Source: a virus (Duplodnaviria > Caudoviricetes). From it: DNA of 24,261 nucleotides. The stretch lies in the IMG/VR virus record IMGVR_UViG_3300044676_000826, positions 1 through 24,261 of that record. One strand, written 5' to 3'. Made by a program: the position numbers and the translations under genes. Positions 4,330-24,261 of the stretch are shown piece after piece; position 1 is the stretch's first letter; the number at the start of each line of letters is the position of its first letter. The notes under the pieces are model-generated. The model was not told where the DNA came from, did not search any database, and saw only the letters and a program-made list of their open reading frames with translations.

Positions 4330-4467
4330 ATGAATAATATAACAAAACTCCGCGTCATGCTGCGCGATATGGAAAACAGCCTTGGCATCTTTGGAGATGT
4401 CATAGGCGCTATCTGCATCTTCGGAATACTAATTGTCGGTTTATTTTTTGCAGGAGTTTACCAATGA
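4330..4467 (+). CDS. Small membrane protein, 45 aa (not in ORF track)
   Basis: MNNITKLRVMLRDMENSLGIFGDVIGAICIFGILIVGLFFAGVYQ*. AAGGA SD; C-terminal hydrophobic helix; ATGA overlap with the next gene. Confidence 0.8.
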   Translation: MNNITKLRVMLRDMENSLGIFGDVIGAICIFGILIVGLFFAGVYQ

Positions 4468-4997
4468 ACCTCACAACAACACATGATTTTGTAATCACTC
4501 ACATGATGGACAACGGCACGACATTTGGAGTGCGCGTTGATACTGGCGAAAGCGTACATGTTTCGCCGCGTTTATCTCAGCAATGTGATGCTCAGATCGA
4601 TGACATCTGCACCGGCATCTTAGTGCGCAATACGCAGTATAACGCAGACCGCACACCTTGGGTTGCCGCCTATGTAGAAAAAGCTCGTCCTGCGAAGGAA
4701 ATGTTCAGGGAAATGTTTGGCGATATGCGCCCTGAGCCAGTCGAAGAAGCGCCAAGGGAGCGCACTTGGGATGAGATAGCAGATGAAATTATTGCTTTCC
4801 TGAGCAGCCCAGAGGTCTCATACTGCGAAACATCAGACATTAGCGAGGCAGTCGATATGGAAACCCGAAGGTTAAGTAATGTGCTGGAGCATATGCATAG
4901 CCACGGCAGAATATGCAAAGCAGAGGTGCGCCAGAAGGCAGATCAGGAGCGCGTATCTATGGCGCTGTGGTCTATTGATATGAGCGTGTACCAATGA
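4464..4997 (+). CDS. Hypothetical protein, possible C-terminal winged-helix domain
   Basis: 177-aa ORF with GGAG SD and ATGA overlaps at both ends. TSDISEAVDMETRRLSNVLEHMHSHGRI is wHTH-like. Confidence 0.75.
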   Translation: MNLTTTHDFVITHMMDNGTTFGVRVDTGESVHVSPRLSQQCDAQIDDICTGILVRNTQYNADRTPWVAAYVEKARPAKEMFREMFGDMRPEPVEEAPRERTWDEIADEIIAFLSSPEVSYCETSDISEAVDMETRRLSNVLEHMHSHGRICKAEVRQKADQERVSMALWSIDMSVYQ

Positions 4998-5149
4998 GCT
5001 ATTGCAGAGAATGTGATGGTACGGGCCGCATAGAGCGCCGCAGCTTTATGCAAACGCCTGATAGTGCAACATGGGAAACATGGACAGAACCTTGTCCTTA
5101 TTGCCAAGATGAAGATGATTATGATTGGCGCGGGGAGGATCAAGAATGA
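4994..5149 (+). CDS. Small zinc-finger protein with DnaJ-like CxxCxGxG repeat, 51 aa (not in ORF track)
   Basis: MSYCRECDGTGRIERRSFMQTPDSATWETWTEPCPYCQDEDDYDWRGEDQE*. ATGA overlaps on both sides. Confidence 0.8.
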   Translation: MSYCRECDGTGRIERRSFMQTPDSATWETWTEPCPYCQDEDDYDWRGEDQE

Positions 5150-5322
5150 CAAAAACAACATGGATTGCTCTAATGGTATTTTCATCGCCATATGAATGCG
5201 CAGAATTTATCGAAAAGTACAAAGCCAACCTATATGGCCCTGTGCAATGCGTTATTCAGCATGAAGAAACAAACACCGTGCGCCCCAAGCGCAAGCCAGA
5301 GCAAACAGATGCGCCACGTTGA
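5146..5322 (+). CDS. Hypothetical protein, 58 aa
   Basis: MTKTTWIALMVFSSPYECAEF..., with GGAGG SD and ATGA overlap. Start reassigned from 5125 to 5146. Confidence 0.7.
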   Translation: MTKTTWIALMVFSSPYECAEFIEKYKANLYGPVQCVIQHEETNTVRPKRKPEQTDAPR

Positions 5323-6166
5323 TTTGTGTTCTGGGATTGGCGGCTTTGCATTAGGCTTTGAGTGGGCGGGGTTAAGCACACCTGTGCTGTTCTGTGACAT
5401 TGAGCCGTGGAGCCGCCAAATATTACGCAAACATTGGCCTGATGTGCCGATTGCAGAAGATGTAAAGGAGTTAGCCAATGACCCAAATAGAAATGTTCCC
5501 GATTGCGACATCCTTACAGCAGGATACCCCTGCCAGCCCTTTTCACTTGCCGGGGAGCGCAGAGGCACAGAAGATGACAGACATATCTGGCCATACATAT
5601 TTTCCATTATTCAGGCCAAACGACCCGCTTGGTGCGTTTTCGAGAATGTTTATGGGCATGTCTCTATGGGCCTCGACGAAGTGTTATCTGACTTGGAACG
5701 TGAAGCCTACGCCACAAGGCCGTTCATTGTTCCAGCTTGCGCCGCAGACGCACCTCACAGAAGAGACAGAGTTTGGATCATCGCCAGAGATGTGGGCGAC
5801 ACCAGATGCGGCGGCAGGAAAGAGGGGAGGAACGCTGAAGAGAGGCAAACGCCCATCAGGTGCAAATCGTCAAGTGTCAATAAACGATCAGGTAAAGATG
5901 TGGCCGACCCCCACAGCGCACATCAGCAAAAAAGGGGCATATCCAGCCGAGTACAATCGCAACACAACAACGCTAACGGCAGAGGCGACAGCATCGGAAG
6001 GGAAGCCCCACAGTTCTGGCTCCCTGAACCCGCAGTGGGTAGAGTGGCTAATGGGATACCCAGAAGGGTGGACAGACTTAAAGGATTAGGTAACGCGATT
6101 GTGCCGCAGATTGCACAGCGCATAGGAGAAACAATTAAGGCTATAGAGGAGAACAACAATGGCTAA
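5309..6166 (+). CDS. DNA (cytosine-5) methyltransferase, large (alpha) subunit lacking motif IX
   Basis: Motif I DLCSGIGG, IV AGYPCQPFSLAG, VI FENV, VIII APHRRDRVWII, X LKGLGNAIVP. Start at MRHVDL (5309) places motif I at the N-terminus. Confidence 0.92.
   Translation: MRHVDLCSGIGGFALGFEWAGLSTPVLFCDIEPWSRQILRKHWPDVPIAEDVKELANDPNRNVPDCDILTAGYPCQPFSLAGERRGTEDDRHIWPYIFSIIQAKRPAWCVFENVYGHVSMGLDEVLSDLEREAYATRPFIVPACAADAPHRRDRVWIIARDVGDTRCGGRKEGRNAEERQTPIRCKSSSVNKRSGKDVADPHSAHQQKRGISSRVQSQHNNANGRGDSIGREAPQFWLPEPAVGRVANGIPRRVDRLKGLGNAIVPQIAQRIGETIKAIEENNNG
5478..6089 (+). CDS. Nested +1-frame methyltransferase small (beta) subunit, M.EcoHK31I-beta-like
   Basis: 203-aa stop-free frame inside the MTase gene. 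AAGGAG SD at 5465-5470, 7 nt before the ATG. Ends in motif IX-like LNPQWVEWLMGYPEGWT; two WxTP repeats. Confidence 0.8.
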   Translation: MTQIEMFPIATSLQQDTPASPFHLPGSAEAQKMTDISGHTYFPLFRPNDPLGAFSRMFMGMSLWASTKCYLTWNVKPTPQGRSLFQLAPQTHLTEETEFGSSPEMWATPDAAAGKRGGTLKRGKRPSGANRQVSINDQVKMWPTPTAHISKKGAYPAEYNRNTTTLTAEATASEGKPHSSGSLNPQWVEWLMGYPEGWTDLKD

Positions 6167-6389
6167 ATGGGATCTTACCAAGATCGAAAACTGCTCAACC
6201 GTGGGCGATTATATTGATGAAGATGATACACAGCCAAATCAGCCAACGTCGCTGATGATTGTGCGCTCTATTAATCGCAAAGCAGATATTATGCGAATGG
6301 ATGCTGGGCGCAATCCAGAGCGCCGCACAATGAAGCAACGCGCTGAGGAAATCATAGCCCTCTGCGCGATGCTGGAGAAGCGCCTATGA
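6159..6389 (+). CDS. Hypothetical protein, 76 aa
   Basis: GAGGAG SD; overlaps the MTase stop and the next start. Confidence 0.75.
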   Translation: MAKWDLTKIENCSTVGDYIDEDDTQPNQPTSLMIVRSINRKADIMRMDAGRNPERRTMKQRAEEIIALCAMLEKRL

Positions 6390-6718
6390 ATGAACAGATG
6401 ACGCTGCTAGACCGCTGGAAAGAAATGGCTGTCATAGAAAACGCAAGGATGCACCGCCGCATGATTGGACGGGATGATATGCACCCTTATTCTCACAAGC
6501 CTTGGGCAATAGAAAAGCTGCGCAAGGAAATTGAGCGCTGCCTAAAGAGGCATGGTGAGCTATCTGTGGGTGATTTGTGCAGTATGATTGAGCAGGATGT
6601 GACGCATATTGACCTTGGCTTAAAGACCCTACGCGACCGGCGTAGGATTGTTAAAACGTCTTATATTCATGGCCAGCAGCTATATCGCATTAGCACAAAG
6701 GATGAGCGCCGCTTGTAG
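6386..6718 (+). CDS. Hypothetical protein, probable winged-helix DNA-binding domain
   Basis: GGAG SD; ATGA overlap; LKRHGELSVGDLCSMIEQDVTHIDLGLKTLRDRRRIVK is wHTH-like. Confidence 0.7.
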   Translation: MNEQMTLLDRWKEMAVIENARMHRRMIGRDDMHPYSHKPWAIEKLRKEIERCLKRHGELSVGDLCSMIEQDVTHIDLGLKTLRDRRRIVKTSYIHGQQLYRISTKDERRL

Positions 6719-6742
6719 ATCACCCGCAAAATATAGAGATAC

Positions 6743-6782
6743 AAAATACCGCGTGGTCAAATCATTGATTATGCGGTATTTT
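6743..6782 (+). promoter_or_regulatory. 18-bp RNA hairpin upstream of the nuclease start (terminator or translational block)
   Basis: AAAATACCGCGTGGTCAA-ATCA-TTGATTATGCGGTATTTT. All three non-Watson-Crick positions are G:U on the plus-strand RNA. Confidence 0.75.
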
Positions 6783-6787
6783 TATGC

Positions 6788-7156
6788 GTGGCCAACAGAA
6801 ACAGTATCGGACGTGCAGGCGAGTTTCTCGTCGCAGCCGAACTTGAGCAGCGCGGGATACGCTGCCATCGGGTAGATATGGAGGGTGATGACCTTTGGGT
6901 TAAGTCAGCCAACGGTGAGCTTGTCACTTTGCAGGTCAAGACAACCTTCAGGCCACGACCAGATCGCAAACGCCCACTGTACTACTCATTCACACGCGCC
7001 AATGGCGATGCGCAAATATTTGCGTATGTAGCTATGGATATACGTTTGTTTATACTGCGTGGCCCACCAACCGGCAAAACGGTACGCATAAAGCCTGCCG
7101 ATTTTACGCAGCAGGCTATGGATGACAGCATATTAAGATTTCTGGGTGGTTCGTGA
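6788..7156 (+). CDS. PD-(D/E)XK endonuclease-like protein
   Basis: GRAGEFLVAAEL...DDLWV...LQVKT pattern (E-D-QxK). GTG start without a strong SD. Confidence 0.78.
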   Translation: MANRNSIGRAGEFLVAAELEQRGIRCHRVDMEGDDLWVKSANGELVTLQVKTTFRPRPDRKRPLYYSFTRANGDAQIFAYVAMDIRLFILRGPPTGKTVRIKPADFTQQAMDDSILRFLGGS

Positions 7157-8486: not shown

Positions 8487-8969
8487 TTACCACCACCCCG
8501 CGCCAAGCCCAGTCAACCATGTGCCGCCTACTATAATCGCCGCTAACATCACAAGCAGTAATATCAGCAGTAGCATTTCAAAGAATGCCGCTTTGCGCTC
8601 TTGCTGGCGGTACAACGTTTCTTCGCGCTCTTTCTTAATCTTGCGCCGTAGCTCCACCATCTCACGCCAAGTGCCATAGCCAAATCTATTATTTAGCAAC
8701 TGCTGTAAGTCTTTTTCCTGCTCAGCCAGCTTCTTCTGGTGGATTATGATTTGAAGCGCCTCTTGCTCCACAGACCCTGATGAAAAAAGCTTAGTGAAAA
8801 TTGGCGGGTTTTTACGCTGCTGCTCTGCGCGACCCAGATCCGCTGCCGCGCCATACCACTTGCCTAGCTGACCAGCCACGTCCTCTAGCTCACGCCCAGC
8901 GTAAACTAGCTTTTTGACCATGTTATAGGCTTGTGTGGCCCCAGCAATGGCTGTGATCGGATCTATCAT
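8487..8969 (-). CDS. Coiled-coil protein with C-terminal membrane anchor
   Basis: Start MIDPITAIAGA at 8969 (TGATG overlap); helical core; C-terminal hydrophobic helix. Confidence 0.75.
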   Translation of the reverse strand: MIDPITAIAGATQAYNMVKKLVYAGRELEDVAGQLGKWYGAAADLGRAEQQRKNPPIFTKLFSSGSVEQEALQIIIHQKKLAEQEKDLQQLLNNRFGYGTWREMVELRRKIKKEREETLYRQQERKAAFFEMLLLILLLVMLAAIIVGGTWLTGLGAGWW

Positions 8970-9142
8970 CAGGCACCTTTGCCCACCTTTGCGACTGGAG
9001 GGCATTTAAAGTTATACGGTATTCTTATAACATATGGGTAGTGATAATAAAATCCGCTTGGGCATCTATAGATACAAGCGTTGTACAGAACATGACCTTC
9101 TACTATAACGCCAACCGCTATACCGGCCAGCGCACAGATCAT
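8969..9142 (-). CDS. Small Cys/Tyr-rich protein, 57 aa (not in ORF track)
   Basis: MICALAGIAVGVIVEGHVLYNACIYRCPSGFYYHYPYVIRIPYNFKCPPVAKVGKGA*. Fills the gap exactly, with ATGA and TGATG overlaps. Confidence 0.75.
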   Translation of the reverse strand: MICALAGIAVGVIVEGHVLYNACIYRCPSGFYYHYPYVIRIPYNFKCPPVAKVGKGA

Positions 9143-9917: not shown

Positions 9918-11729
9918 TTAGGCGTTTTCTAAGGCAGTAATTCGTGCTTCTAGTGCAGTAATAGTTGCTTGCTGTTCTTGGATTGCTTTAATAAGAACTG
10001 GAATAAGCTCAGTGTAACGAACACTCATGTATTCCGTGTCATCGTCATTAAGCATTGTTGTATCAACAACTTCGTCAAGCACCCCTTCTAAGTCTTGAGC
10101 AATAACACCAAGTTTCTTTTTAGCATCAGGCGCATCAACATTATTAAGCCTATATTTAACTGTTCTTATTCCACTTAAAGTTTCAACAGCGTTCTCAATA
10201 TTTTCAACATCGTACTTTAAACGCTCATCAGAAAAAGTCCCCCATGAAGTTGAGCCATTAGTTAAGGCAACACCTGCGGTTTCAGCACCAGAATAAATCC
10301 TAACCTGTCTGATACTTGAGTTTTGCCCAATATAGTAAGCAGTAGCATCTAACCAATGGAAACCAGAATATCCTAATCCTTCTATTTTAAAGTGAGGATC
10401 ACCTTCAGTTAGGTTACTAGATTCTTTTATATGTAGTCTTGCACTAGGCGAACTCGTCCCAATCCCAACATTACCGCTGCTGTCGATAGAGACAACCTGA
10501 GTGCCACTAAATGCGCTTGAGGCGTTGTCTGCGGATACCCAAACCCCAAGATTACCTGCAAGAGCAGACTCCGCTTTTACACCCCAAACCCGTCTGCTTG
10601 CAGTGTCTGTGCTAGTTCCAAGCTGGATGCCCCCAATGTTTTCAGTGCTTGTGCCTGCATTGATACCCCCAAAAAGAGCCGTGTCACCAACTCCCCCAAC
10701 TACATGCAATGCTTTATCAGGCGAAGTCGTACCAATGCCCAAACTCTCAGCACTCGCATCCCAGAAGAACGATTGGCTGCTACCCAGTGAATCGTAGAAG
10801 CTTATGTCGCCGTTGTTGGCTACCCTTAAGGTAGAAGCCCCTGACCCATTTTGAGTGAGTAAGGAGTATTTTAAAGAATTAGACCCACCACCCTTTACAA
10901 AAAGACCGTTGCCACTTATCGTGTCAGTATTAATAAATTGGCCAACAGCGATGTTTGGCAGTGAACCGCTTACAGTCAGCCCATCGCTGGTCAAAGTACC
11001 CGTGATGTCTACGCCTGTGTCGGTGGTGGCGAGTTTGGATGCGTTGTCGTAGTAAAGATCAACAGCACCTCCTGTTATGCCTCTGAAATACTTAGCATTT
11101 GCTGTTGATCTAAGTTGTAGGTCAGTAGCATCTATATACAGTGAACCTGTACCATTGCGTTCTTCAATATAACTATCTGTACCATCATGATATATCCAGA
11201 GGTCAGACCCTGCGCCGAAGATGGCTTTACCATTATCAGCAAAGGTGGCGTTGCCTGTTACGCTGATGCCTGTGCTGGTGGTGGCGAGCTTGGCTGAGCC
11301 TGCATGATACAGATCCACAGGCCCATCAACTTGAAACGTAGCCATATTAGTTAAATCATCTTTTGCTAGAAAAATGTAATTTCCATCAGTAGTTATGAAA
11401 AAATTACCGTTTCCCTGATCTCTGATAAATGAATTGGGATTGTTATGATATATGAGCAAATCACTATCATCTCCCAGCACAATCCTATCATCTGAAACGC
11501 CAGAGCTATCTCCAAGCGTAATATTTGCGCCAGACATGCTTAGATCACCCGTCATGGTGTCGCCAGTGATCCTGACAAAGCCAGTGGCCGTATCTAAGGC
11601 GTTCTTGAACTCATCTATCGTAATGCTTTTAGTCAGAGCAGCAGAGGTATCAACAATTACTAGCTGATCGTCTGTCGCTACATTAGCACCTGTGAGTGCC
11701 GTTAATTCACTTATCTTTTTATCAGCCAT
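9918..11729 (-). CDS. Long tail fibre with C-terminal intramolecular chaperone (peptidase S74-like)
   Basis: KKISEL N-terminus; repeated SDLxIYH, KLATTxTG and GIGTxSP modules; SDERLK...GVIAQ...LIKAIQEQQ..I..LE chaperone signature. Confidence 0.88.
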   Translation of the reverse strand: MADKKISELTALTGANVATDDQLVIVDTSAALTKSITIDEFKNALDTATGFVRITGDTMTGDLSMSGANITLGDSSGVSDDRIVLGDDSDLLIYHNNPNSFIRDQGNGNFFITTDGNYIFLAKDDLTNMATFQVDGPVDLYHAGSAKLATTSTGISVTGNATFADNGKAIFGAGSDLWIYHDGTDSYIEERNGTGSLYIDATDLQLRSTANAKYFRGITGGAVDLYYDNASKLATTDTGVDITGTLTSDGLTVSGSLPNIAVGQFINTDTISGNGLFVKGGGSNSLKYSLLTQNGSGASTLRVANNGDISFYDSLGSSQSFFWDASAESLGIGTTSPDKALHVVGGVGDTALFGGINAGTSTENIGGIQLGTSTDTASRRVWGVKAESALAGNLGVWVSADNASSAFSGTQVVSIDSSGNVGIGTSSPSARLHIKESSNLTEGDPHFKIEGLGYSGFHWLDATAYYIGQNSSIRQVRIYSGAETAGVALTNGSTSWGTFSDERLKYDVENIENAVETLSGIRTVKYRLNNVDAPDAKKKLGVIAQDLEGVLDEVVDTTMLNDDDTEYMSVRYTELIPVLIKAIQEQQATITALEARITALENA

Positions 11730-20173: not shown

Positions 20174-20321
20174 CTTCTTCAGCCTTTTCTTCTTTTACAT
20201 ATGGCTTGGCATATCCGCGATCAATTAGCTTCTGAGCGATACGGTCATCAACTGTATGGCTTGCACCAGCCTTGCCATTCTTGCCGCTCCAAGATGCGTC
20301 TTTAATCAGCGTAATCTTCAT
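20154..20321 (-). CDS. Small post-capsid protein, 55 aa (not in ORF track)
   Basis: MKITLIKDASWSGKNGKAGASHTVDDRIAQKLIDRGYAKPYVKEEKAEEDGAATS*. ATGA overlap; resembles its upstream neighbour. Confidence 0.78.
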   Translation of the reverse strand: MKITLIKDASWSGKNGKAGASHTVDDRIAQKLIDRGYAKPYVKEEKAEEDGAATS

Positions 20322-20512
20322 TTTTTGGCCCTTGTGGTCTTAGGCTTTGCAGCCCGATCAGTCGGAGCCTTCACAGGCTTAGGCTCAGGAGCATTATCAA
20401 TGCGCCCATATCCCTTTAGCGCAGTCGCTTCATCTGCGCCTAACTCAACTATGTCACCGGCTTTTCTAGCTTGACCAGCAGCGACACAGGATTTCAGGAT
20501 AATATATTTCAT
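20318..20512 (-). CDS. Small post-capsid protein, 64 aa
   Basis: MKYIILKSCVAAGQARKAGDIVELGADEATALKGYGRI...; AAGGGG SD. Start reassigned to 20512. Confidence 0.78.
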   Translation of the reverse strand: MKYIILKSCVAAGQARKAGDIVELGADEATALKGYGRIDNAPEPKPVKAPTDRAAKPKTTRAKK

Positions 20513-20527
20513 CTTTCGCCCCTTATT

Positions 20528-20553
20528 GGAAAGGAGGGCCAAGTGGCCCTCCC
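20528..20553 (-). terminator. Intrinsic terminator-like hairpin after the major capsid gene
   Basis: GGAGGGCC-ACTT-GGCCCTCC followed by TTTCC on the minus strand. The short U-tract suggests read-through. Confidence 0.7.
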
Positions 20554-20565
20554 AAGTTAGCACTC

Positions 20566-23181
20566 TTATGCACCATCATTGTTGAATGCAAAGCTTACTG
20601 CGTGACGTACAGCTACGTCTACAGTTTGCAGTGCAACAATCCGTACTGTGCCTGAGCTAGACGCAGTATATGGATCTACAACAATGTCCAAACCGCCATA
20701 CATGCCGATCAGCAAGTCAGCAAAGTTGCCGAAATACAGATCACCAGCAGTAACTTGGTTTGATACGATTGCATTGTAACCGTTCATTGATCCATCAGGA
20801 GCAACAACAAACTGGCCTGAACCACTGTCTTTTACAGTTGTTTTCAACGCACCGTACATGCTGGCAGGTAAGATATACGCCAAGTTTCCTTGCAGAGCGT
20901 TATCTTCTGCTACCGCAGTTTCCATCGCTACAACTTCAGGAAATGTTGGATTAACCCCAGCAAAGTTAGTTGGTGTGTTAATGCCAGATGTGTTTTTCAC
21001 ACCAGTAGGCTGACCAGATGATCCTGTTCCAGCCAATGCACCCAGATCAATCGCCAGAGCGATAGAAGCTGTCAGATCATTACGCACCAATGCTTCAACA
21101 TCCAAAGATGATTGCTGCATCATAAGGCGTGTAATGTCTGTATGAGCGCCAAGCACTTTCGGCGTCATGGTGACTTGACCAACAGTAGGCTCGCTTTCGC
21201 CAGATGCGCCACCCTCAGATGAAATCCAACCAGCAGATGATGCGGCTGTTTTCTTTGGGATCTTCACGTTGCCTGACAAGCCTGTCAGCATTGTTGCACC
21301 GGCTTGCATGACTGATGAAGCATTCCGCAATACGTCGATGAAATCGCCGCCACGGAAATCGTCAGCAATGATGCCAGCATCGTCAGTTGTATTCATGTCG
21401 CGCACTTTCCAGCTACGCAATACATCTGCTGGGATCATAATGCCTTGTGCTTCAACACCCATCGCGTCTGACGCAGCAGCAGCAGCTTCTAATTCAAAAG
21501 CAGCAGCTTTTTGTGCAGAGCGATCAGTTGGGTTTGCATGAGCGCGGATAGCGCGAAGCAATGAGAACTGACGGGCCTCTTTCGGGGCAAGTCCGATTTC
21601 ATTTGGCGTATCCAATGGTGCATTACCGATTACGTCCAGCAATTCACCGCGAAATTCTGCGAGTGAGCGGCCTTCTGATACGGCTTTGTCTGCCAAATCA
21701 CGCTTGTTGTGCTTTGCAGCCAAGCGATACATTTCAGCAGTATCTTTTGCGGCGGCGCGAGTAGCTTCGGCCTTAACCGCATCGATGTCGATCTTGTTTT
21801 CTTCCGACATGATAGTTTCCTCTCTAATAAGAGTTTCAGTGATAGGTTTTGCGGGTGGCTTCTCTGCTGCGCGGCCCACCCCGACTGTCCTGTCTGCGGG
21901 TATGCTCACAACTGATACTTCCATTGGAAGCCAAGACTTCACGCGGTAGCTATCCGCATCTTGACGCTCCATGTCGTTGACATGATAGCCAACGCTGATG
22001 TTGCTTCTGATACCATCCACAACATCGTCGAAAACCTCTTTGGCAAGCCCGTTTCTTCCGAAACGCACAGTCGCCCGTAATCTACGGGCCGAGCCATCAA
22101 GGCTTACGTCCTCTACCACACCAATCTGCTGGCGTGGGTCATGATCCAAGAGAAGCGGCATACGTCCTGACTTAGCAAAGCTAAGATCAATGCTGCGCTC
22201 ATCGTGATCTAATATTTCATTGCCAAAGCTGCGCTCTACTGGCTCTTCGCTGGATACAGCAATTCGCACAGTGCGCTTATCTTCGTCAACAACTTTACCG
22301 TCAAATGACATGCCGCGAGTTTCCATCTTCTCACGGTCAAGGCGCTCTTCATCATCGTAATGCTGAATGCGCTCATCATCTTCCTGAGTAGTCTGCATTT
22401 CTTCTGGCTGATCTTCACGATCAGGCTTTGCAAAAGTGACAGTATAAGCATCATCTGTCTCTTCCACGTTCAATATGTGACGCTCTTCCATCTCTGTTGA
22501 TCCTTTTAGTTCAAGACCGATAATATCATCTTTTGCCATATCTGCGCTACCCCTTTCATCGTTAGCCATTGGATGACCCTTTGGCAGAAGGTCAGTATCA
22601 TGCTTTCCGCTGCGATATTTGCCATTGCGCAGCGCATATAAGAAACTGTTTACGCGGGCATATGCCCACTGCTCAGGTGACTTCACGTTTGGTCTGACGC
22701 TCTGCGGGTTTGTCTTATAAGCGCCAACGCCACGACGAAACACTGCGCTCAATGTGCGGGTGCTGGTGCGCTTAGACGCAACATCACCAACTTTATCGTT
22801 GTGATCCTTGGCCTTCTTGGCCAAGCCCACCTTCACAGCGTCAGTCAGTTCAGGGGCGCGATCTTCCTTATCTAAACGCTCTGCAATCTGTCTGCTCCAC
22901 GAAAAACCCGCATCACCGCCCCAAAGCGCCCATGCAATACGGCCATTTGATGGATAACCCTTTTCGCCTACGCGAAACCCCTCAGCCTTCTTATCCACCT
23001 CATGGCGGCTAAAGAAGCTGTACATGCGCTTGACTGTATCGTCTGACAAATTCTTGCCATTGGATATGTCACGCGCTCTAGCAATGCCAACTTCAGTACC
23101 ACCACGCCCAAACTCACGCCGCCACTCTAGGCCGCGCTTCGCTTCTTCCACCATTCCATCAGTCGGCTTGTTCGACATCAT
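20566..23181 (-). CDS. Polyprotein: two N-terminal accessory domains + HK97-type prohead protease + scaffold + major capsid protein (871 aa)
   Basis: Protease motifs LLLDHD, ISVGY and EVSVVSIPAD. HK97-fold capsid motifs FIDVLRN..V, IPK, LMMQQS and YFGNFADL..G..GGLDIVVDPY. Confidence 0.92.
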   Translation of the reverse strand: MMSNKPTDGMVEEAKRGLEWRREFGRGGTEVGIARARDISNGKNLSDDTVKRMYSFFSRHEVDKKAEGFRVGEKGYPSNGRIAWALWGGDAGFSWSRQIAERLDKEDRAPELTDAVKVGLAKKAKDHNDKVGDVASKRTSTRTLSAVFRRGVGAYKTNPQSVRPNVKSPEQWAYARVNSFLYALRNGKYRSGKHDTDLLPKGHPMANDERGSADMAKDDIIGLELKGSTEMEERHILNVEETDDAYTVTFAKPDREDQPEEMQTTQEDDERIQHYDDEERLDREKMETRGMSFDGKVVDEDKRTVRIAVSSEEPVERSFGNEILDHDERSIDLSFAKSGRMPLLLDHDPRQQIGVVEDVSLDGSARRLRATVRFGRNGLAKEVFDDVVDGIRSNISVGYHVNDMERQDADSYRVKSWLPMEVSVVSIPADRTVGVGRAAEKPPAKPITETLIREETIMSEENKIDIDAVKAEATRAAAKDTAEMYRLAAKHNKRDLADKAVSEGRSLAEFRGELLDVIGNAPLDTPNEIGLAPKEARQFSLLRAIRAHANPTDRSAQKAAAFELEAAAAASDAMGVEAQGIMIPADVLRSWKVRDMNTTDDAGIIADDFRGGDFIDVLRNASSVMQAGATMLTGLSGNVKIPKKTAASSAGWISSEGGASGESEPTVGQVTMTPKVLGAHTDITRLMMQQSSLDVEALVRNDLTASIALAIDLGALAGTGSSGQPTGVKNTSGINTPTNFAGVNPTFPEVVAMETAVAEDNALQGNLAYILPASMYGALKTTVKDSGSGQFVVAPDGSMNGYNAIVSNQVTAGDLYFGNFADLLIGMYGGLDIVVDPYTASSSGTVRIVALQTVDVAVRHAVSFAFNNDGA

Positions 23182-24261
23182 CCACCTCTGCCGGTACTGG
23201 TTGCTTCATGCCAAACGGCTGATAAGCCATAGATAAGCCAAATTGCTCAGCAAGCTCTTTGTCACGCTCAATTTGAGCAAAGGTATCTTCTGCATCACGC
23301 CCATAAGTAGCCGCAATGTCGGAATGGCTCAAGATGCCGTTCTGCAATCCCACAACCGCAGCATTCATCTCCTTGAGCGGGTCAACCCACTGGAATCCTC
23401 TGCCACGCCAAGTTACGTCCTGACTGAACTTAAACACCTTATTTTCACCAGAAATAGGTATAAATCCATGATCCATCACATGCTCAAGCCAGATGCGGTA
23501 GAATGGATCAAGGAAGTGATCGATCATAAATCTGTGCAACGTGCGATAGAAATCCCTCTCTTCCAATGCGCCCTGACGTATGGACGAATAACTTGTTCCC
23601 TCAAGATCGTTGGCTAATGATGTATAGCTTACGCCCAAGCCACCGGCTATGCCGCGCAGAACTGCCTTCTCAAAGTCAGCAAACGCAGATGTTGGATGCG
23701 TGGGATCAAATGGGGTGAAGTCAACGCCAGCAGGCAATTGATGGAATGTACCGGCTTCAGCGTCATAGATGGGAACAGTATTTTGCTCATCATCAAACCC
23801 ATCAGCAGTAAAACCATCCCCAGCAGGGCTAGTAAAGAAACCCATCTTAGCAGCGCCAGTTCTGGCCGCAATCAACTCAGCCTCACGATAGCCATGCAAC
23901 ATCTTCAATGACGCAATCGCAGCAACAGACCAAGGAACTCCCCTAGTCTGATCTGCGCGTTCTGGACGGTAGATGTGCATCATCTCATCCGCAGAAACCC
24001 GTGTATATTTGCGCTCTGCGGCTGGCGTCATGTAATCATAATCACCCTTGTGGTAATTCAGCACATAATACGCAATCGGACGCTTGGTTTTACTATCAAG
24101 CTCAACACCCATGCGAACCTGATTGCCATTTGCAGCAAGCTCATTCTTCTCTTCGTCCACTAAATCAGGCTCAATAAGCTGCAAACCTATGCCGTAACGC
24201 AAATAGTTGCCCTTAACAATCTTCAGGAACACCTCACCGTCACGCGCAACGCCAGATATGA
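23159..24261 (-). CDS. Portal protein, lambda family (5' end outside window)
   Basis: Frame is open to the window edge (ISGVARDGEVF...). Motifs QTRGVPW, IAGGLGVSY..LANDL...YSSIR and WVDPLKE. Confidence 0.93.
   Translation of the reverse strand, partial: ISGVARDGEVFLKIVKGNYLRYGIGLQLIEPDLVDEEKNELAANGNQVRMGVELDSKTKRPIAYYVLNYHKGDYDYMTPAAERKYTRVSADEMMHIYRPERADQTRGVPWSVAAIASLKMLHGYREAELIAARTGAAKMGFFTSPAGDGFTADGFDDEQNTVPIYDAEAGTFHQLPAGVDFTPFDPTHPTSAFADFEKAVLRGIAGGLGVSYTSLANDLEGTSYSSIRQGALEERDFYRTLHRFMIDHFLDPFYRIWLEHVMDHGFIPISGENKVFKFSQDVTWRGRGFQWVDPLKEMNAAVVGLQNGILSHSDIAATYGRDAEDTFAQIERDKELAEQFGLSMAYQPFGMKQPVPAEVDDVEQAD

Follow-up and report, generated by a model that had tools for sequence, protein, structure and literature searches.

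The capsid gene of a small tailed phage was found to encode a single 871-aa polyprotein in which domain A, the DUF5824-like domain B, an acidic linker, an S78 protease, a scaffold and an HK97 capsid domain follow one another from the N to the C terminus. We propose that nested starts would give three co-terminal products of this polyprotein, that the longest would bring A and B along as prohead cargo, that a predicted Arg-specific protease would free both there as small internal proteins, and that freed A and B would bind and protect packaged or just-injected DNA. Judged by comparison with related genes, this account as a whole is the one towards which we lean. Precedents exist for each element, i.e., for protease-capsid fusions, for nested starts, for internal proteins released by a head protease and for effectors attached to MuF or portal; what is new is their combination.

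Architecture of the capsid polyprotein

The window, i.e., the whole stretch of 24,261 nt that was analysed, has the gene content of a small siphophage according to Pfam and phrog profiles: portal, capsid, head-tail, tail, tape measure and fibre genes together with endolysin, methylase, exonuclease and primase-helicase genes, amounting to a late plus a replication region. The terminase lies outside the window. The features discussed below are as follows.

23159..24259, minus strand: lambda-family portal gene, 5' part outside the window (PF05136, E=9.7e-66; TIGR01539 above cut-off)
20566..23181, minus strand: cargo-protease-scaffold-capsid polyprotein, 871 aa; likeliest first start M2 at 23178
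22864..23172, minus strand: domain A, aa 4-106, five-helix module without a Pfam family, part of phrog_2859 (pLDDT 96.8)
22858..22860, minus strand: R108, predicted protease cut between A and B
22564..22851, minus strand: domain B, aa 111-206, three-helix DUF5824-like module (pLDDT 90.9)
22552..22554, minus strand: R210, predicted cut after B (Arg within 14 aa of the end of B in 16/20)
22537..22556, minus strand: alternative linker restart M215, SD-like run plus ATG at 22539 (SD -8.0 kcal/mol)
22520..22528, minus strand: extended -10-like TGATATTAT, present, conservation absent
22489..22505, minus strand: AAGGA plus ATG of M231, candidate cargo-free protease-capsid start (SD -5.4)
21871..22314, minus strand: S78 prohead protease, aa 290-437, flanked by R289 and R437 (PF04586 above cut-off)
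21808..21822, minus strand: GAGGA plus ATG of M458, conserved scaffold-capsid restart (SD energies, alignment)
21400..21810, minus strand: putative scaffold (delta-like) segment, aa 458-594, ending at the predicted maturation site R594
20566..21399, minus strand: HK97-fold capsid domain, aa 595-871, about 28 kDa (PF05065; PDB 8GTA)

The 871-aa ORF is real and conserved, because contigs from three of the four sequencing runs span the stretch free of indels and joints (there were zero reads on it in the fourth) and cultured CRP-822-type relatives carry both domains. A frameshift or an assembly artefact was rejected on the same contigs and on abundant homologs of the 870-aa class. The stretch is present in estuary, freshwater and salt-marsh runs; an RNA run (X15) contains it as contigs, which give neither strand nor start. 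The 3' end of the portal gene (23159) overlaps the start of the polyprotein by 23 nt, and no MuF gene occupies the portal-protease slot of this phage.

Profile searches placed the S78 protease (PF04586; 31.3 bits, cut-off 21) at aa 334-432 and the capsid (PF05065; 123.5 bits) at aa 611-865 of the same ORF, with a sub-threshold DUF5824 match at aa 133-195. The ORF also matched the protease-capsid fusion family phrog_617 (E=1e-153) and PDB 8GTA (E=1e-51 over aa 604-864), in keeping with the statement of the earlier note that protease-capsid fusions occur in HK97-fold phages. The NCBIfam protease/MCP fusion model NF045541 scored 146.6 bits, below its threshold of 525 and over profile positions 1-314 of 634 only, and the MuF domain PF04233 was absent from the polyprotein in the Pfam search. 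The His347 and Ser396 columns, which we take from HK97 gp4 to be catalytic, were conserved in 13/13 aligned proteins, and the protease ended in xGR in 28/30 homologs. Both N-terminal motifs quoted in the earlier note (KRMYSFFSRH...IAWALWGGDAG for A and VFRRGVGAY...QWAYARVNSF for B) are present in the translation; its estimate of about 230 aa before the protease was wrong, since the core begins near aa 290 and about 288 aa precede it.

The structure models of A and B are confident (pLDDT 96.8 and 90.9, respectively) and show a small helical domain in each case; a convincing solved relative emerged for neither. A PDB sequence search gave no match for A and one chance match for B, Foldseek of the A model against the PDB gave nothing at E<=0.001, and the best VIA-align Z scores (5.1 for A, 6.2 for B) are at noise level for helical domains, which does not by itself prove new folds. 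No DNA-binding fold appeared among the structure matches of either domain. That B resembles DUF5824, as suggested in the earlier note, was supported by comparison: B matched PF19141 just below cut-off (E=5.7e-5, 23.7 bits against 25; model positions 61-121 of 127), four B homologs exceeded the cut-off, and the top Atlas clusters were DUF5824 (score 0.93), with Foldseek hits to DUF5824-named entries being weak (E>=0.056). As for A, aa 4-108 matched solely part of phrog_2859, and no Pfam family covers it. A profile search with A recovered 4962 representatives at 50% identity, and 97 sequences, whose hosts belong to many phyla, had a mean column identity of 62%. A as DUF3140 (PF11338) was not supported: the two are colinear over 60 columns, yet the hhalign score of 14.3 (E=0.1) was equalled by 2/30 column-shuffled controls, and the Pfam scan found DUF3140 in 0/97 A members. 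DUF3140 occurred in 0/5, 0/301, 0/5 and 12/201 genomes of the sets counted, with Hva1 near none of the 12 loci. A and B as paralogues were rejected (hhalign E=0.53 and 0.59). The description of the two as basic domains held for B (net +11 here; family median +9), but for A the excess of positive charge is small, at +3 in this protein, with a median of +5 and extremes of -8 and +13 in the family; A is rich in conserved Arg, and certain members are net acidic.

Predicted nested starts and cut sites

Two internal SD-ATG pairs lie in frame at the positions and spacings claimed earlier: AAGGA (22505-22501) stands 9 nt upstream of the ATG at 22491, and GAGGA (21822-21818) stands 7 nt upstream of the ATG at 21810, whose product is 414 aa long. 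SD strength was computed as anti-SD pairing energy (kcal/mol). Of the 33 homologs in which A, the protease and the scaffold are all present (a count that excludes three near-identical loci), every one had a scaffold ATG 7-25 aa after the protease. The median SD energy at this ATG was -8.4, compared to -6.85 at the gene's first start and -1.7 at 629 other in-frame ATGs, and energies of -6 or lower were reached by 27/33 scaffold ATGs vs 6% of the 629; the internal site is thus conserved, and we regard it as a predicted nested start of the lambda C/Nu3 type. When synonymous codons were shuffled with the amino acids kept (30 homologs, three further near-duplicates removed), the scaffold SD was -7.7 observed vs -4.1 shuffled (stronger in 28/30) and the best-of-k linker SD was -6.55 vs -4.56 (stronger in 26/30). 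Per-site p-values were modest (median 0.15 for scaffold, 0.26 for linker) because acidic codons mimic an SD.

The linker restart varies in position across homologs, and here M215 (22539; SD -8.0) is stronger than M231 (SD -5.4), which makes M215 as good a candidate as M231. At the beginning of the gene, M2 (23178; SD -10.3) appears a likelier first start than M1 (SD -5.2). The earlier proposal of three co-terminal isoforms is supported by comparison for the scaffold tier, but the linker tier is weaker and wanders. Relatives without cargo also have the scaffold Met (8/8: ECOO78, R4C, Persinger, PPpW-3, Mica, Alexa, Murka and S-LBS1), with an SD of -6 or lower in four of these phages, weak in three and missing in one; cyanophages S-CBS1 and S-LBS1 keep the Met with the SD absent. 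Since this Met is kept in cargo-less phages, the putative scaffold restart is a trait of the protease-capsid fusion family that is older than the cargo.

The extended -10 element described earlier (TGATATTAT, 22528-22520) is indeed present 28 nt upstream of the ATG at 22491, but its conservation is no better than chance: TGnTAnnnT occurred in 12/30 homolog linkers, where codon shuffling predicts 8.7, and 1/30 had the strict form. A sigma-70 scan of the coding strand from 20300 to 23400 gave no site, and these two results do not support an internal promoter.

Release of A and B by the protease, also proposed in the earlier note, is supported by the residues at the domain borders. Going back from the start of B, the first basic residue is Arg in 21/21 capsid fusions and Lys in 38/38 portal fusions, the latter with a Lys at a distance of nine residues upstream of the invariant Pro of A in 37/38; A-B linkers have no Lys in capsid fusions and 0.6% Arg in portal fusions. 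An Arg follows the end of B within 14 aa in 16/20, one locus is exceptional in having no Arg after A, and the scaffold-capsid junction is Arg in 26/27 capsid fusions, compared to a Lys before the shell domain in the nine capsid genes compared from portal-type phages. Other layouts had K/K pairs (four loci) or R/R pairs (three loci), and two Mu-portal fusions had Asn at the border. The border residue thus appears to track each phage's capsid maturation site; as the R/K split comes from few independent lineages, its very small p-value is an overstatement, and this is strong pattern evidence rather than a measured cut. The predicted sites here are R108, R210, R289, R437 and R594. With 13 Arg inside A and 9 inside B, the two domains might themselves be degraded by an Arg protease, as the scaffold is.

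Carriers of A and B and free-standing A

Across the 80 best viral loci, A-B stood before a protease-capsid in one ORF in 26 and ended a long ORF in 48 (an HK97 portal in 10/10 checked); of the remainder, five were N-terminal but incomplete and one lay between a Mu portal and MuF. We also scanned 80 cluster representatives carrying A, the longer ones among the best 150 of the 4962 matches. Fifty were head proteins, namely 15 portals (four Pfam families), 21 free S78/XkdF/ClpP proteases, 12 capsid-bearing proteins and two MuF proteins; the other 30 comprised eight with just other cargo-type families, three odd or weak matches and 19 with no family, and no tail or replication family appeared among the 80. 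A was also found within halovirus portals and the HGTV-1 protease. Families sharing the cargo slot included Hva1-TUDOR, DUF3721, Dps, HAD, ParB, ChaB and ADP-ribosyltransferase; two loci had A-Dps-protease fusions, and phage CRP-811 has Hva1-TUDOR in the place of B. In a tree of A (85/97 sequences, 12 unlabelled rows excluded, labels partly by eye), 14 label changes were needed where the minimum is five, with poor resolution. Compared by sequence, A plus B is a mobile cassette that rides on portals, MuF, free proteases and capsids; neither this mobility nor the free-standing bacterial A described below appears in the earlier note.

The earlier note suggested a survey of homologs with the domains as separate genes, and A does occur in this form. 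Jumbo phage PaBG carries A by itself, surrounded by replication genes and away from the head module, and lone A genes of 100-130 aa occur in Rhizobiaceae, Henriciella, Roseobacteraceae, Verrucomicrobia and others (20/201 genomes sampled from one family), annotated 'hypothetical' in the clusters looked up. Hva1-TUDOR adjoins free A in 33/52 chromosomal-type loci; a complex prediction for the two scored 0.00, which is uninformative either way. An EcfG core promoter motif has been published (PMC3892343). Using a GGAAC-N16-CGTT type pattern whose -10 end is looser than the published motif, we found an EcfG-like promoter upstream of free A at 12/52 loci (about one expected; the genomes are related, so not independent) and none at the other 40/52. 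Free A lies downstream of phyR and an ECF sigma gene at loci L138 and L152, the latter also with nepR. On the tree, free A forms one side of a branch (SH-aLRT 96), which falls among phage forms under midpoint rooting, a rooting that leaves the direction unfixed.

In the open-access literature, we found no paper on DUF5824 or on A/B modules, no relevant paper on Hva1-TUDOR in phage, and no tested function for DUF5824, Hva1_TUDOR (PF11160), DUF3721 or DUF3140. Among these, DUF5824 is the family that B resembles, and Hva1 and DUF3721 share the cargo slot.

The closest known genes are those of the CRP-822-type roseophages (CRP-701, -821, -822, -823 and -831), which carry the same A-B-protease-capsid gene behind the portal (five GenBank records, 75-76% identity over aa 1-207, annotated 'major capsid protein'). 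Their downstream gene order matches that of the window, with the capsid, portal and head-tail order common to both; the terms 'protease', 'fused' and 'mass spectrometry' are absent from the main text of the paper on these phages (PMC12629253). CRP-811 is 79% identical across the protease-capsid part and carries A with Hva1-TUDOR, and CRP-406 carries A without B, compared to A plus B here. The phrog_617 fusions (Jilinvirus ECOO78, Cronusvirus R4C, PDB 8GTA) likewise have S78 protease, scaffold and HK97 capsid in one ORF, with the same catalytic motifs and an internal scaffold Met, but, unlike the gene here, have no N-terminal cargo. Gifsy-2 is also said to have a fused protease-capsid gene. The R4C gene is 629 aa long and the 8GTA chain is listed at 268 aa; the main text of the R4C structure paper has no mention of protease or cleavage.

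Proposed mechanism and competing explanations

In lambda C/Nu3, an in-frame restart gives a protease-free, more abundant product; the restart here is similarly nested, with the difference that its product includes the capsid subunit itself. T4 gp21 has a second in-frame start at Met45, whose product likewise lacks the protease and is more abundant (PMC9026906), and in comparison to both systems the gene here has an extra upstream tier carrying cargo. We propose that the 414-aa scaffold-capsid form (43 kDa) would build most of the shell and that the 69-71 kDa and 95 kDa forms would co-assemble via their own capsid domains, so that start strengths would set the copy numbers of protease and cargo; this step is very probable. 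In all likelihood, cuts after the five predicted Arg would then free A (12 kDa, pI 9.4), B (11 kDa, pI 10.2), the protease and the capsid subunit (28 kDa). A and B would probably stay inside the head like T4 IPI-III, small basic internal proteins that enter the prohead and are then released by its protease (PMC9026906). T4 IPs come from separate genes with a short capsid-targeting leader, whereas A and B have no leader and are encoded in frame within the capsid ORF. MuF and portal proteins that bear effector domains have been described (PMC5512222); this carrier has no MuF, and A is MuF-fused in other phages. Unlike T4 IPs and MuF effectors, A and B would be loaded by direct fusion to any head protein, capsid included, are non-enzymatic-looking and highly conserved, and A is also chromosomal.

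That the job of A and B is DNA protection is, by analogy, possible rather than probable. We favour it since free A lies in a stress setting, Dps occupies the same slot, B is basic and A is Arg-rich; against it count the failure to match a DNA-binding fold, the acidic A members and the position of PaBG A outside the head module. Our own pick ranks it above injected counter-defence, and that above an assembly aid. With loading and release unchanged, A and B might instead be injected in the style of T4 IPI or MuF cargo and, by binding a host protein in place of DNA, serve counter-defence or host takeover, which we consider rather unlikely. ADP-ribosyltransferase, HAD, ParB and zeta-toxin domains occur in the same polypeptides as A, a suite read as virion-delivered effectors in PMC5512222; A and B match T4 IPs in size and charge (PMC9026906), and the B model weakly recalls sigma region 2 at a Z of 5.0-5.2, within noise. 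However, A is highly conserved (62%, 97 sequences, many phyla, haloviruses included), T4 IPs are poorly conserved according to the same paper, and bacteria retain A in a stress-gene setting. It is improbable that A and B are inner-face assembly aids (portal or scaffold recruitment, start of DNA spooling) that are cut off and lost as the head matures: they do sit at the portal-protease slot where MuF genes often lie and where this phage is MuF-less, and among surveyed carriers they fuse solely to head-interior proteins, with SPP1 gp7/MuF as a model, but close relatives build heads with A alone, with Hva1-TUDOR or without cargo, and free bacterial A has no head to assemble.

The nested starts themselves could be fossils of once-separate genes, with the full-length polyprotein alone being made in a Gifsy-2-like manner. 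Gene fusion leaves SD-ATG relics, there are cyanophage homologs without a scaffold SD, and 415 cargo copies per head are conceivable given about 360 of each IP in T4 (PMC9026906). The scaffold SD, however, beats the first start in most homologs (median -8.4 vs -6.85), is encoded in varied amino-acid contexts and is kept across distant myo- and siphophages, and we hold this explanation to be very improbable in comparison to nested starts that are in use.

On a broader and doubtful reading, tailed phages of bacteria and archaea would share a stress-protection kit (A, DUF5824, Hva1-TUDOR, DUF3721 and Dps) with the bacterial general stress response, fuse it to any head-interior protein, retune the border residue (Arg, Lys or Asn) to suit their own protease and dose it by nested starts; A would protect DNA with a new fold, and bacteria may have acquired it from phages. 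If this were true, the kit would be a virion equivalent of spore DNA-protecting proteins. Function can be tested directly with purified phages CRP-822 and CRP-406 and with culturable free-A bacteria (Rhizobium, Henriciella), and the border residue predicts the protease specificity of a phage from its sequence. Each ingredient of our account has a precedent, and the combination would be a simple rule, open to testing, by which small phages could bring in internal proteins and set their amounts in the absence of a targeting leader. If A and B are protective, the finding bears on the survival of surface-water phages under UV and oxidation.

Domains A and B in other proteins

The five-helix N-terminal cargo domain A shares a polypeptide with Dps and an S78 prohead protease in the fusions A-Dps-S78 and A-HAD-Dps-S78 (L140:2543-4123 and P0391); we suggest that the ferritin-like Dps would be a head cargo. 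Diverged copies of A, two to three per protein, are present in the big phage-like proteins P0284, P0288, P0293 and P0375, two of which also contain DUF5872. A frame of 2213 aa at L141:3-6641 is a polyvalent-type protein that combines a helicase-like and a zeta-toxin domain with A and a ParB domain. The DUF5824-like domain B was observed without A within an unannotated 848-aa protein of Salinibacter phage 5_2 (L085:4080-6626), and this protein is present in 183 Salinibacter phage records.

Stand-alone domain A genes

Pseudomonas phage PaBG carries a lone A gene (L176:2501-2833), annotated as a 'putative DNA-binding protein' and flanked by an RNA 2'-phosphotransferase gene and topoisomerase genes. 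At two phyR loci (L138:5001-5303 and L152:5001-5309), free A lies immediately 3' of the ECF sigma gene and is followed by a phospholipase D gene. Free A was also observed amid housekeeping genes, without Hva1 at either locus, in MAGs labelled Patescibacteria (L127:3866-4183 and L137:4974-5300).

Other features of the window

4464-7156 (+): island between the lysis block and the replication block
5192-6166 (+): C5 DNA methylase, inside this island with small ORFs
8487-9005 (-): ORF of 172 aa, downstream of the tail-fibre genes
9918-11729 (-): tail fibre with an S74 chaperone at its C-terminus, then DUF7936
20533-20552 (-): GC-rich hairpin, perfect over 8 bp, then a short T run

The 172-aa ORF weakly matches the DnaB C-terminal domain (E=2.5e-4) and also matches phrog_32327; its position after the tail-fibre genes is unusual for a helicase-like piece. 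The hairpin lies directly 3' of the capsid stop, where the terminator scan assigned no terminator; it may serve as a leaky terminator, such that capsid transcripts would exceed tail transcripts.
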